This document shows, piece after piece, positions 8,209 through 48,515 of a stretch of 64,000 nucleotides of DNA. This DNA comes from a virus: the IMG/VR virus record IMGVR_UViG_3300027760_000838. One strand, 5' to 3'. Positions within the stretch are counted from its first letter, which is position 1. Each line of letters opens with the position of its first letter. The translations under genes were made by a program, and so were the position numbers. The notes under the pieces are model-generated. The model saw nothing but the letters and a program-made list of their open reading frames with translations, had not been told where the DNA came from and searched no databases.

Positions 8209-8886
8209 TTAGCTGTTTTTGTCCCTTATTATAGGCATTATGGTGTTACTACCACCATATGGTTGTGCTGAACCGGGCATGATACCTAATTTTAATCGAT
8301 GTTTCTTTGCTATTAAAGGAAAACTTAATTGATCTCTACTGCTATGTTTACAGATAAATTCCCACCAAGTTAATAACGCTGCTTGTACTTTGGGGGTATT
8401 AGCATAGACCAAACTGGTTAATTCATAAAGTCCGGCGTTTCTAGGCCAATTAGTGCGATTAAAATAGTCTAATGTACTGGCTAATGAATCGCCGGTGTCA
8501 AAATTTATTCGTCCAAGTAAGTCTATTTCGTCGTAAACACAATTTCTTATGGCATGTTTCCATACAGCCATGTCTTTGTCTTTAACATGAGTGTTGATTA
8601 GTTCTTCTGGATCTGTTTGTAGTTCACAATGATGATCATGCCAAATATAGTAATCGTATCCAGGTAGTAAAAGAAACCCTAATACTTTGGGTAATTTGGC
8701 ATTACGTCTAGGATAGAAGTATGAATCTAAACTAAAGTCTAATAAAGGTTGTTGTTGCCAAACTTTACAGTTGTGTTCGCGATCAACAAAGGCATAATAA
8801 TCGGCGTTGGCATATCCGCCATTGGCGGGATCTTGAATACTAGCGCCACTTAGTCCACTAACGCCAGTTATAACAGCAATTTTCAT
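8209..8886 (-). CDS. DUF616 (TOD1/MUCI70-like) glycosyltransferase-domain protein
   Basis: RNAKLPKVL, YIWHD, KHAIRNCVYDE, WW...SSRDQLSFP. Confidence 0.75.
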   Translation of the reverse strand: MKIAVITGVSGLSGASIQDPANGGYANADYYAFVDREHNCKVWQQQPLLDFSLDSYFYPRRNAKLPKVLGFLLLPGYDYYIWHDHHCELQTDPEELINTHVKDKDMAVWKHAIRNCVYDEIDLLGRINFDTGDSLASTLDYFNRTNWPRNAGLYELTSLVYANTPKVQAALLTWWEFICKHSSRDQLSFPLIAKKHRLKLGIMPGSAQPYGGSNTIMPIIRDKNS

Positions 8887-40543: not shown

Positions 40544-40996
40544 TTATCCTTCAATGTTTGATGTATCATAAGTTTGGTGGAAAATATCTTTCTTTACTAC
40601 GCCGTAGTCGTTATGGCCGTGACGTACAATATAATCTTCTCCTGGATTGTAGTGTAGCTTTTCACCCCAGCTAGTGTCAACACTTCCGGAATGATCGGCC
40701 AACTTGGCAACCTTCATAATTTTCTTTGGGGTACAAATACCATGCCCATGATCATCTTTGAGTGCATCAAATTTTTCTGGACTGATTGGATATTTTTCCC
40801 CCTTTGGACCACGCATAATGTAATAACCAGCTGGATATTTTACAGGACCTTCCAGTGTGTCAATTACACCAGGTTCATCTGCAATGTTGTAATGTTCTTT
40901 GGCAGGCTTTTTATAAGTTTCAAACCCGCCATGTTTAAACCAAGCATCGGTGATTCCATTCATAGATTCTACGATGTTGATGTATTCTTTAATCAT
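40544..40996 (-). CDS. Hypothetical protein with duplicated PGDYG-like module
   Basis: TLEG...AGYYIMRGPKGEKYP and TSWG...GEDYIVRHG. Confidence 0.6.
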   Translation of the reverse strand: MIKEYINIVESMNGITDAWFKHGGFETYKKPAKEHYNIADEPGVIDTLEGPVKYPAGYYIMRGPKGEKYPISPEKFDALKDDHGHGICTPKKIMKVAKLADHSGSVDTSWGEKLHYNPGEDYIVRHGHNDYGVVKKDIFHQTYDTSNIEG

Positions 40997-41387
40997 TTTC
41001 CACCTTTATGTTAGTTAATTCCGCAATCATTTTAAACTTTTCCCAAGCCATGCGGGCAGCTGGGTTTTGATCTAATTCCTTATCCATTAATACAATTTCA
41101 CGCCAATGATAGGCAGGTGATCTTATGCCAGCACCAAATTTGCGAGGTTGATGAATTTTGCCATCATCCCAAAGTTGCAGGGTAACAGCTCTGACTTCGT
41201 CTTCACGATTTTTCAATCCACTCCAAATACCATGTTCATAGGCGTAGCCATGCCAAATAGCATCCCATTGATCATCCAGAGTAGGATCAAAATGAGTACC
41301 AGTGATTAACACTTGCACATCTTCTGGATCCACTACTCCTTCTACGATGTCTCGAATACAACGACTCAATGAGTAGCCAATTTTCAT
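40989..41387 (-). CDS. Hypothetical protein (132 aa)
   Basis: Operon context. Confidence 0.7.
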   Translation of the reverse strand: MKIGYSLSRCIRDIVEGVVDPEDVQVLITGTHFDPTLDDQWDAIWHGYAYEHGIWSGLKNREDEVRAVTLQLWDDGKIHQPRKFGAGIRSPAYHWREIVLMDKELDQNPAARMAWEKFKMIAELTNIKVEND

Positions 41388-44873: not shown

Positions 44874-44902
44874 AGTATACAGTCTTATAGGTCCAATGTC
44901 AA
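44874..44902 (-). promoter_or_regulatory. Sigma70 promoter TTGACA-N17-TATACT for the tRNA-like RNA
   Basis: The -10 ends 7 nt before G1 of the element. Confidence 0.75.
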
Positions 44903-45970
44903 CTGTTGTGATTCCGCCACACGCATTTCTCTTCCAACTCTATGTACTGTATCAATCAATACCGAGACATTCTCAGGCGGTGTGTATTGACTAATACCAT
45001 GCCCTAAATTGAATACATGACCAGTATTGCTGGGACCAAAACTACGTACAACTCTTTCTGCTTCACAAGCCACTGCTTCTGGTGTGCTACGCAACACCAC
45101 AGGGTCCATATTGCCTTGTAAGGTAACTCTATCGCCAACTAATGCTCTAGCCTTGGCCAAATCAACGGTCCAATCCACGCCCAACGCATTTACACCAATC
45201 TCGGCTTGATCATCTAACCAAAGTCCACCGCCTTTGCTGAAAGCAATATTGGGGATGACTACGCCATCTTTGATTTTGATTAGTCCTTCTACAATTTGTC
45301 GCATATAACTCAAGCTGAATTTCTTATAAGAATCTTCACTCAATACACCGCCCCAACTGTCAAAAATCATAACAGCTTGAGCTCCAGCAATGATCTGTGC
45401 ATTTAAGTATTCAGTAACAGCATCAGCAGTAATGTTCAAAATCTTGTGCATGAGGTCAGGACGAGAATACATCATGCTTTTGACTTTGGCATAATCATCA
45501 CTGCCGCCGCCTTCAATCATGTAGCAGGCCAGTGTCCATGGACTACCACTAAAACCAATTAATGGTACTCTTCCGTTAATTGCACGACGTGTCATGGTAA
45601 TAGCGTCCATAACATAGCGTAGCTCTTTCTCTACATCTGGCACAAACAGTTTGTTCACATCGTTTTCATCTTTAATTGGGTTGGCTAGTTTAGGACCTTC
45701 ACCGTCCACAAAGTGTAAGCCCAAGCCCATGGCATCTGGTACTGTAAGAATATCTGAAAAGATAATTGATGCGTCTAAGTCATAACGATCTAAGGGTTGT
45801 AATGTTACTTCACAGGCATATTCGGGAGTTTTACAAAGATTTAAAAAGCTGCCGGCCTTACGTCTTGTTTCGTTGTATTCAGGTAAGTAGCGTCCGGCTT
45901 GGCGCATGACCCAAACAGGAGTTGTTTCTGTTGGTTGCTTGAGTAGAGCTCTTAAAAATATATCATTCAT
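44885..45970 (-). CDS. hemE: Uroporphyrinogen decarboxylase
   Basis: [44 protein letters not shown]. Confidence 0.97.
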
Positions 45971-45972
45971 AA

Positions 45973-46899
45973 TTATATTGTACCTAAAATTTTTGCCATT
46001 ATTTTTTTGCCTCCACGAGCAAGCATGGCTTCAGCCATGGAAACGGCTAATTTTTCTGCTTCTTTCCAAGGACCTTTGCAATTAGCCGAAATAATATCAG
46101 TACCATCTGGCATGACAATAAGACCTTGCATGGTAAAAGTTTGATGGTCTCCAATTTCTGCATATGCACCTAAGGGCAATTGACAACTGCCGCCAAGACG
46201 TTTACTAAAAGCACGTTCAGCCCTTACACAAATGGTAGTTTCAATATCAGTCAATGCTCCTATGGCCTCCAATAGATCGGATCTGTCATTTAATATTTCT
46301 ATGCCCAATGCTCCTTGCCCAGGCGCTGGTACAATTATTTTGGGGTCTATCTCACTGCGTATTCGATGTCCTAACCCTAGTCTTTTTAATCCTGCCGCTG
46401 CTAAAATAATGGCATCGTATTCGCCTGCATCTAATTTGGCTAACCTAGTGTCTAAATTTCCACGTAAAGACGCCACCTTTAACAAAGGAAATTTCCTTAG
46501 CAGTTGCCCTTGTCTACGCAAACTACTAGTGCCCACTACGCTACCTGCTGGTAGTTCAGCTAGGCTATTAAATTTATTACTGACAAATGCGTCTCTAACA
46601 TCCTCTCTACGAGTAATGGCTGCTAGACTAAATCCATCAGGCAAGTCCATTGGTACGTCTTTCATACTGTGAACTGCTAAATCCGCACGACGTTCTTGTA
46701 GTGCCACTTCTAATTCTTTAATGAATAGGCCTTTGCCACCAATACTGGACAAAGGTTGATCTAGAATTTGATCGCCCTTTGTGGTCATGCCTAATATTTC
46801 CACTTGATATTCGTTTAGTTCCAAAGATTCTTTTATGTGATTAGCCTGCCACATGGCTAATCTCGATTCACGACTGGCTATAATTAGTTTATTTTCCAT
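45973..46899 (-). CDS. hemC: Hydroxymethylbilane synthase (porphobilinogen deaminase)
   Basis: [48 protein letters not shown] (dipyrromethane Cys). Confidence 0.97.
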
Positions 46900-46940: not shown

Positions 46941-46967
46941 AAAAAAAAGCCCTGCATTACACAGGGC
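46941..46967 (-). terminator. Intrinsic terminator
   Basis: GCCCTGT-GTAAT-GCAGGGC followed by T8. Confidence 0.9.
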
Positions 46968-46969
46968 CA

Positions 46970-47210
46970 CGTAGGGAAAAGTTAATTACATAGACGGGAC
47001 AATGTACAAGTAAGGTTACGGCCCTCACGAACAATGTTCAATAGGCAAAGCACATTACTCTGTATACTCCCAACTTACAAAACACAACGTCGTTATAAAT
47101 TAGTTGGTTCACACAAATATGTCACTTAAAAAGTGTTTCGATTTTTTCTACTATAGTAGAGGTATCTACCTAATCTTCTTTCCCACTACGGCCAATTTTA
47201 ATAAATTGGC
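46970..47210 (-). ncRNA. Candidate structured 3' RNA downstream of the 188-aa gene
   Basis: 8-bp hairpin 47191-47210; long-range helix 47178-47190 with 46970-46981, extendable inward; ends at a terminator. Confidence 0.5.
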
Positions 47211-47216
47211 AAAATC

Positions 47217-47783
47217 TTACAGAATACCTTCAAACTTCAAAGTCTTTTCAACTTCTTCAGTGATCTGAATAACTGTTTGTACGTTGAGTTCAAGAATTTC
47301 ATCTTGAGCTTTTTGTTTTTGCTTGCGACTAAAACTCACAATATTTTTAAAGTTAGTAATGTCATTGGCATTGAACAGACTTACGGTAACATTGTCCTGA
47401 TAGAAGCTATGACTACCTTCACCTTTGTTACGGATTTTTGCCAAACGACTTTCAATTACGGTCAAAGGCTCTTGAACAGTTTCACTTACGTATTTGGAAT
47501 AAAATTGAATTTGTTTTTCCAAATGAGCAATGTCTGCCAATTTGGCATCAATACCGTACTGCACATTGGCCTGACTAACACCTTTACGGATGGCGTATAA
47601 TGCTTCCAATAAACGTTCACGGCGGGCAATGTCAGCACTAAACTTTTCCTGTGCAAGACTTAATGTTTCTCCAACGTTTTGAAACTCGTCGATAGTAACA
47701 CTGTTTTTAAATTCAAGAGCCTTGAGTGTGTCGTTGATCAGTGTTTGGACAGCATTAGCTTTGCGTAGAGTCAAGTTCATCAT
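47217..47783 (-). CDS. Coiled-coil hypothetical protein (188 aa)
   Basis: LTLRKANAVQ N-terminus, heptad-rich, KQKAQDEILELNVQT C-terminus; SD AAGGA. Confidence 0.8.
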   Translation of the reverse strand: MMNLTLRKANAVQTLINDTLKALEFKNSVTIDEFQNVGETLSLAQEKFSADIARRERLLEALYAIRKGVSQANVQYGIDAKLADIAHLEKQIQFYSKYVSETVQEPLTVIESRLAKIRNKGEGSHSFYQDNVTVSLFNANDITNFKNIVSFSRKQKQKAQDEILELNVQTVIQITEEVEKTLKFEGIL

Positions 47784-47800: not shown

Positions 47801-47876
47801 TGGTAGGACGTGACGGGTTCGAACCGCCGACATTCGCCGTGTAAAGGCGACGCTCTACCAACTGAGCTAACGTCCC
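47801..47876 (-). tRNA. tRNA-Val(TAC)
   Basis: 76-nt cloverleaf, TCGCC-TTTACAC-GGCGA, encoded CCA. Confidence 0.95.
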
Positions 47877-47885
47877 AATGCATGT

Positions 47886-47914
47886 ATTATATGCTGATCT
47901 ATATGTGTTGTCTA
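47886..47914 (-). promoter_or_regulatory. Sigma70-type promoter TAGACA-N17-TATAAT for tRNA-Val
   Basis: Near consensus. Confidence 0.65.
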
Positions 47915-48151
47915 GCGTTTTGGCTGTTTTGCTCTAACTCTCTTGTTGAGATATTCTTGTGTGTCTACTCGACCATTTTGTATTTCAAGTAGAGCACTTA
48001 CACATCCATGATCGTCATGGTTGTAACGACGTAGTTCACGAGCCTTTTGTGCCGCCACTAAGACTAAAAGAAATTTATTACCTCCTGACATTTTTACACA
48101 TTGTTGAGTATCAATGTCTGGACCACGACTAAGTTTTTTTACAATTTTCAT
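47912..48151 (-). CDS. rpoZ: RNA polymerase omega subunit-like protein
   Basis: GGNKFLLVLVAAQKAREL...VSALLEIQNG resembles omega NRFDLVLVAARRARQ...ALREIEEG. Confidence 0.75.
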   Translation of the reverse strand: MKIVKKLSRGPDIDTQQCVKMSGGNKFLLVLVAAQKARELRRYNHDDHGCVSALLEIQNGRVDTQEYLNKRVRAKQPKR

Positions 48152-48245: not shown

Positions 48246-48515
48246 TTAAGCAGTACGTAGAATCAAATGGTATCCAAACTGAGTTTGAACTGGACCACTT
48301 AGTTGGCCTACCTCTAAACCAAATGTGGCATCTTCAAAAGGTTTGACCATTTGTCCACGACCAAACTCACCAAGGTCACCACCACGTTGACCACTTGGAC
48401 AGCTACTATTTGCTGCTGCTAATCTAGCAAAGTCTTCTCCTGTTTGAATTCCTTCAATCAAGGCCTGGGCTTTTTGTTCTGAATCTACTAAAATATGACT
48501 GGCTCTAACTTTCAT
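48246..48515 (-). CDS. ppiC: Parvulin peptidyl-prolyl isomerase
   Basis: RASHILV, FARLA...SSCPSG..GGDLG.F..GQMVKPFE, TQFGYHLI. Confidence 0.95.
   Translation of the reverse strand: MKVRASHILVDSEQKAQALIEGIQTGEDFARLAAANSSCPSGQRGGDLGEFGRGQMVKPFEDATFGLEVGQLSGPVQTQFGYHLILRTA

Follow-up and report, generated by a model that had tools for sequence, protein, structure and literature searches.

A conserved RNA with a row of UG-centred seven-nucleotide units, coupled to a DIP1984-like protein gene in large phages

The locus described here lies in IMG/VR virus record IMGVR_UViG_3300027760_000838, analysed as one stretch of 64,000 nucleotides (nt) that we call the window and that resembles a section of a large phage genome: its minus-strand genes are densely packed, its contents include nine tRNAs, a ClpP-like gene, hemC and hemE, and relatives of the locus occur on viral contigs as long as 400 kb. 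The locus (Table 1) holds a gene for a protein of 188 amino acids (aa) and, after it, a conserved non-coding RNA in which UG dinucleotides recur in a row every seven nucleotides. Promoter, tRNA-Val, gene, RNA and terminator follow one another in that order, which suggests a single transcript. The RNA family is in no RNA catalogue, and gene and RNA probably represent an undescribed protein-RNA particle.

Table 1. Features of the locus (positions in the window)
Feature	Position	Strand	Remarks
sigma-70-type promoter	47886..47914	-	11/12 consensus, 17-nt spacer; consensus match only
tRNA-Val(TAC)	47801..47876	-	first part of the predicted transcript
188-aa partner gene	47217..47783	-	DIP1984/DUF6847-like helical fold, predicted antiparallel homodimer
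conserved non-coding RNA	46970..47214	-	~245 nt; one copy in each related locus; without Rfam family
P1 5' hairpin	47191..47210	-	U run before the hairpin; loop length variable; gone in a few relatives; 6/6 pairs with two-sided change
P2a outer closing helix, 5' strand	47178..47190	-	
purine-rich conserved strand	47170..47177	-	invariant A, near-invariant AG; opposite conserved ACU 46987-46985
P2b inner closing helix, 5' strand	47164..47169	-	partner 46995-46990; 97.6% paired, 6/6 two-sided
P4 arm	47058..47118	-	two helices flanking an internal loop with invariant UG (47111)
heptad row units 1-4	47032..47054	-	UG at 47054, 47047, 47040, 47033
P6 optional hairpin	47010..47028	-	inserted between units 4 and 5
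heptad row units 5-6	47000..47008	-	UG at 47008, 47001
P2b + P2a 3' strands	46970..46995	-	
intrinsic terminator	46941..46968	-	9-base-pair (bp) stem 46968-46948 and U run; not constant in the RNA family

The RNA and its heptad row

That the RNA is real we regard as practically certain. Copies were collected with a nucleotide hidden Markov model (HMM) built from 22 seeds, and covariation was assessed in an alignment of 77 phage copies. Across P1, P2b and the two parts of P4, 95.9% of pairings are kept and 21 of the 22 base pairs have changed on both sides, whereas none of 500 shuffles reached any of these measures and slid controls gave 22-45%. An unbiased scan recovered the same pairs together with further ones, which also exceeded the controls in pairing and score, and the outer helix P2a is more stable with its own partner strand (-17.8 kcal/mol) than with a mismatched partner from another copy (-10.4 kcal/mol). 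Folding energy agrees, a 276-nt stretch reaching -83.5 kcal/mol (z = -5.2), a stability equalled in 0 of 200 shuffles. Since G-U pairs far outnumber A-C (195 vs 32), it is the minus strand that folds, and since most length changes between conserved anchors (226 of 294) would break a reading frame, the region contains no unrecognised small gene, an alternative raised in a preliminary description of the window made from its letters alone. The variable parts of the RNA are self-paired hairpins.

That description had located the open reading frame, the 8-bp hairpin (P1) and the terminator stem with its U run correctly on the minus strand. Its closing helix is also present, with 47190-47178 pairing with 46981-46970 and, further in, AUUA with UAAU and GUAGAU with GUCUAU (P2b); the inner part of its single-sequence fold, however, differs from the conserved structure. 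In most relatives the purine-rich strand and the ACU opposite it form an asymmetric internal loop, and the end loop of P4 contains a mini-hairpin of 3 bp as well as a pair of UG units spaced by 7 nt (47086 and 47079). A 2-bp helix placed by RNAalifold within units 5-6 was rejected, as it had zero two-sided change. Among the covariance models of Rfam 15 no family reached its gathering threshold; the best, GcvB, scored 20.7 bits against 42, and this match (E 0.025) was discarded because the terminator and GU-rich sequence account for it. Exact matches of at least 12 nt to the RNA, such as a guide RNA might have with its target, were not found elsewhere in the window.

In the 77 copies, nine UG dinucleotides show little or no variation, and six of these make up the row, whose units have the consensus U-G-Y-N-N-N-U. 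The three successive spacings within units 1-4 equal 7 in 77, 75 and 77 of the 77 copies, as does the spacing of units 5 and 6 in all 77. Where the intervening hairpin P6 is missing (8/77 copies), the six units stand in unbroken 7-nt register. Two near-identical motifs pointed out in the preliminary description (47041-47029 and 47009-46997, 32 nt apart) are indeed there, and correspond to units 3-4 and 5-6, but they are only part of the six-unit row. We infer that the row is unpaired, because no covarying partner was found for it. A pattern of four units occurs once in the window, with 0.12 occurrences expected, which is weak on its own; in three metagenomic genomes and in CcrColossus (212-400 kb) it occurs at a single place per genome, beside the gene. 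In one relative (L182, 2317-2644, minus strand) the part of the RNA from P4 to the row is duplicated internally, visible as two HMM pieces and two rows.

Coupling of RNA and gene

In hundreds of related phage sequences the two parts are found together, whichever of them is taken as the starting point. The protein led to 160 loci, and the nucleotide HMM detected a single same-strand RNA copy within 1.6 kb in 142 of them; in each of the 18 others, the DNA on one side is shorter than 1 kb. Conversely, 139 copies were found by RNA patterns, which favour some subfamilies; 133 of them have a same-strand gene within 1.6 kb and the other six lie at locus ends. Taken with the covariation, which lies far above both controls, this coupling upholds the earlier proposal of a structured RNA linked to the adjacent gene, and the conserved structure does recur beside homologous genes.

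The order of the two parts varies, and the RNA is not a 3' RNA by nature, as had been thought from the window: among 163 non-redundant loci, 111 have it upstream of the gene, often with its own promoter, and 52 have it downstream, and it can be up to 1.6 kb from the gene, with other genes in between. In the commonest layout it is a promoter-proximal leader that ends 13-66 nt before the gene. Just 5' of the RNA, most of the 111 RNA-first loci show a sigma-70-type promoter consensus, 65 with both hexamers and 22 with the -10 only, and the RNA begins directly past a tRNA CCA in 19 loci and directly past a stop codon in 23. On a quick protein tree, parsimony gives five changes of order, at least two of them on strongly supported branches, with the linkage kept throughout. 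Such variable gene order implies that the RNA acts as a molecule of its own and rules out a simple switch in an untranslated region. No conserved case of terminator/antiterminator overlap was seen, and the row lies inside the closing helices.

No other neighbour family is present in even half of the gene clusters. An omega-like gene occurs in 64 of the 163 loci, standing between RNA and gene in 33; as an obligatory third part it was rejected, being absent from 57 loci with full flanks. More generally the genes downstream of the RNA vary (the omega-like gene, tRNAs, others), and some genes past the RNA have a promoter-like site of their own. In the window, an RNA polymerase omega (RpoZ)-like gene lies at 47912-48151 (minus strand), with a weak Pfam match there and matches above the cut-off in relatives. 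One 6.9-kb viral contig (L216) carries two gene-RNA pairs, possibly an assembly artefact.

The surroundings of the locus include several further minus-strand genes. Directly past the terminator of this phage-like genome stand hemC (porphobilinogen deaminase, 45973-46899) and hemE (uroporphyrinogen decarboxylase, 44885-45970). A parvulin-type peptidyl-prolyl isomerase gene (48246-48515) and a PGDYG-family gene (40544-40996) lie in the phage tRNA region, and a 132-aa gene without Pfam match (40989-41387) has look-alikes, judged by eye, apparently between gene and RNA in L005, L014, L016, L017 and L116.

The partner protein and its relatives

A profile of the protein matches about 1,700 clusters at 50% identity. 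The sequence-family search gave no match in Pfam, PHROGs, NCBIfam or PDB sequences, and the single protein as query against viral contigs gave none either; relatives were found with an alignment as query. The predicted model (predicted local distance difference test, pLDDT, 93) has its best fold match, in both structure searches, in 3KDQ, which is DIP1984 of Corynebacterium diphtheriae (Foldseek rank 1, probability 1.0, E 0.013; VIA Z 10.7, 141 aligned residues, root-mean-square deviation 6.7), and this fold of long helical hairpins with terminal strands is the only match that covers residues 3-173. In the Atlas it matches a DUF6847-bearing cluster (TM 0.62-0.78), and two AsnAsn-like anchors (N73 and N167) align with DIP1984. 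As helical folds score easily, the 3KDQ match shows likeness, and remote homology is likely. PF20935 was among the top families of 0 of 114 members, its profile found nothing at the gene in five genomes known to hold it, and a profile-profile comparison with DUF6847 (hhalign) gave a probability of 0.3-0.6%, which is not significant. We therefore call the protein DUF6847-like, not a DUF6847 member.

The model predicts antiparallel homodimers with an interface at residues 25-137. In a homo-oligomer test the protein scored 0.64 against 0.39 for the best control, using a four-copy model and its own alignment, both of which differ from the calibration, where 20 of 30 solved homodimers and one of 23 single chains came up to the mark. 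At least 84% of contacts agree between the four-copy runs, with pLDDT of at least 82, and the pass may be an echo of 3KDQ. Residues L6, R7, R66 and N167 are invariant, and the most conserved terminal residues (L6, R7, K8, Q13, K156, D161 and N167) fall outside the predicted interface. No longer fused form of the protein was seen among the candidates, which is weak evidence. A weak PADLOC match in one of five proteins was dismissed as coiled-coil noise; with no nuclease or toxin family and no credible PADLOC match, the results lend no support to toxicity, as would be expected of the toxin-antitoxin-like pair that the preliminary description had entertained.

Relatives of the protein at 24-42% identity also have the RNA or its row. 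The RNA is carried by cultured phages of Caulobacter (CcrColossus and CcrPW) and of Brevundimonas (three phages); these phages, whose proteins form the gp272 group at ~26% identity to the window protein, keep the closing helix and 5-6 UG units. GTDB genomes yielded two matches only, both on small contigs of metagenome-assembled genomes that carry the RNA and are possibly of phage origin. Locus L359 was rejected as a gene without RNA, since a diverged copy lies directly upstream, and a pattern match 41 kb away from it is due to chance.

Beyond the phages, eleven related bacterial genomes have, after the canonical DUF6847 gene, an RNA distinct from the phage one (~190 nt), whose covarying closing helix encloses a row of six invariant A residues spaced 7, 7, 6, 7 and 7; these genomes are close kin and thus count as one independent case. 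The letter of the row changes with the protein subfamily, UG in these phages and A in bacterial DUF6847.

Other RNAs were seen near the gene. A second conserved RNA of ~210 nt (L006, 2422-2640), with the core GGACAGAGUAAC..CUCAGUCUAGGGC..GCUAGACAC, often stands directly after the same gene in many relatives, among them L012, L013, L022, L026, L029, L039, L054 and L359; it has no Rfam match and was not found in the window. A third conserved non-coding stretch (L036, 3077-3400; also L037, L045, L046 and L049), again without Rfam match, follows the gene where the heptad RNA is upstream. GOLLD RNA lies within 2.5 kb of the gene in five of 20 loci scanned (L004, 4699-5165; L024, L043, L053 and L054).

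A candidate ribonucleoprotein particle and its alternatives

The free order and the varying downstream genes lead us to prefer a stand-alone particle to its rivals, and with moderate confidence we read the pair as a stand-alone RNA and a dedicated partner protein that together form a ribonucleoprotein particle of large phages. That this protein binds the RNA is quite probable. The 5' end of the RNA would come from its own promoter, or from processing behind a tRNA or a stop codon, and the 3' end from the closing helix or a terminator. In the conserved fold the two closing helices and the P4 arm frame the row of six UG-centred 7-nt units. Antiparallel protein dimers would assemble further, and each subunit would read one UG unit of the unpaired row in the manner of the HutP hexamer, so that the RNA, as a scaffold, would determine how large the protein oligomer becomes and which state it takes. 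Two conserved surfaces, LRKANxxQ near the N-terminus and KxxxQDxxLELN near the C-terminus, probably make up the face for RNA binding or assembly; neither belongs to the predicted dimer interface. We lean, if narrowly, towards the RNA being a stoichiometric scaffold rather than a switch or an antidote. Equally slight is our preference for the broader view that an oligomer of the DIP1984 fold counts 7-nt units on a dedicated RNA, with a letter that co-evolves with the subfamily, in a widespread undescribed class of ribonucleoproteins used as a particle in infection. The setting of the pair in tRNA clusters, shared with GOLLD, and behind promoters of host type hints at a role in supporting phage gene expression, a function that is possible but rather doubtful.

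Several observations weigh against such a particle. Energy models pair the G residues of the row, with a mean probability of 0.72, and in one relative (L359) the row is degenerate. With a pI of 6.2 (family median 6.8) the protein is not basic, and linkage alone is no proof of contact. Phage PA5oct has a distant homologue, gp180 (E 7e-13), and no UG row was found near that gene, in the four reported non-coding RNAs (ncRNAs) or at the matching place in the genome. The record marks gp180 (L002, 3001-3564) with ESI-MS/MS, that is, as found in virion preparations (PMC7318152). One of the PA5oct RNAs, ncRNA001 (L307; PA5oct 8263-8498), accounts for 2.4-5% of phage reads and has long helices and no UG row.

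Type III toxin-antitoxin systems (ToxIN, TenpIN, CptIN) also combine one protein gene with an adjacent repeat-bearing RNA in one transcript, and in a similar way the RNA could be an antidote or sponge that binds and neutralises a protein that is harmful or active when free. The strict two-way coupling, the repeated units and the frequent sharing of one transcript by gene and RNA would all be expected under this explanation. However, there are no tandem 30-50-nt repeats here; the RNA is one folded domain with 7-nt units, occurring in either order relative to the gene, and no array of processed repeats. Nor was a ToxN/TenpN/CptN-type endoribonuclease, or any other nuclease or toxin family, matched in Pfam, NCBIfam, PHROGs or PADLOC; the four invariant residues are not a catalytic set, and PA5oct keeps the gene without a UG row. 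We therefore consider an antidote unlikely.

Slightly less likely still is autoregulation in cis, whereby the protein would bind the RNA within its own transcript and control read-through or translation, as in HutP and the analogous case of TRAP. The HutP hexamer recognises UAG-N4-UAG-N4-UAG in the Bacillus subtilis hut terminator (PMC2425495), and the likeness extends to triplets that recur every 7 nt (UAG-N4 in the hut site, UUG-N4 in our RNA), the six sites, the position of the RNA beside the protein's own gene and, if our analogy is right, the reading of the row by a homo-oligomer. The commonest layout, a leader close before the gene, also suits autoregulation. Here, however, the units are part of a free-standing multi-helix RNA and not of a terminator, and there is no fixed downstream operon: about a third of the loci (52/163) have the RNA downstream, at distances of up to 1.6 kb, the genes that follow it are unrelated and in part have a promoter-like site of their own, and terminator/antiterminator overlap was not seen as a conserved feature. 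The HutP, ToxN and Ro60 folds were not among the fold-search matches, an absence that is not exclusion, and HutP was not in the Pfam and NCBIfam results either.

It is improbable, though worth considering, that a host protein is the target of the RNA, or that the RNA works in an RNA-only assembly, and that the gene is a mere co-expressed neighbour in tRNA clusters. GOLLD and ROOL, too, are structured RNAs of phages, found close to tRNA clusters and of unknown function, and RNAs of this type can assemble without protein (PMC12286853); the clusters also hold GOLLD and other uncatalogued RNAs. In contrast to these, the window RNA is much smaller, has no Rfam match and is strictly tied to one protein gene, whereas ROOL has no known partner protein. 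Moreover, other residents of the clusters come and go while the pair stays, and the link also exists outside tRNA clusters, in the CcrColossus group and in bacterial DUF6847. A DNA-level element, either an array of binding sites or a single-stranded DNA structure, is very improbable: direct UUG-N4 repeats are readable in DNA, but the long-range covarying helices, the G-U count far above A-C, the 5' ends set by promoters or tRNA 3' ends and a 7-bp pitch that does not keep phase with the turns of the DNA helix all argue against it.

Two other systems invite comparison with the proposed particle. Ro60 (Rsr) and bacterial Y RNAs, which also occur in phages near tRNAs, share with our pair a long terminal helix that joins the 5' and 3' ends and an RNA that adjoins the protein gene, but there is no TROVE domain here, and neither Rfam nor ARAGORN gave a Y RNA or tRNA-like match. 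DIP1984/DUF6847 (PF20935; 3KDQ) is alike in fold and in that its canonical members also come with a structured RNA bearing a six-unit row; it differs in that the window protein has no Pfam or NCBIfam match and is longer (188 vs ~150 aa), in the UG row as against an A row, and in that here the RNA may precede the gene. No published description of an RNA for DUF6847, DIP1984, 3KDQ or PF20935 was found, although PMC10690425 lists more than 10,000 anonymous viral RNA candidates, and an entry for the present RNA may be among them.

If the proposed particle is real, it would open a first way to approach the function of DIP1984/DUF6847, an orphan fold from structural genomics that was solved in 2009 and for which no paper was found, and it would represent a new kind of protein-RNA module in large phages. 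The rule of six units at 7-nt pitch, with an optional hairpin that keeps the register and a subfamily-specific letter, would lend itself to sharp mutational tests and may also offer a modular RNA-protein tag, and since cultured Caulobacter phages carry the RNA, these ideas would be testable now.
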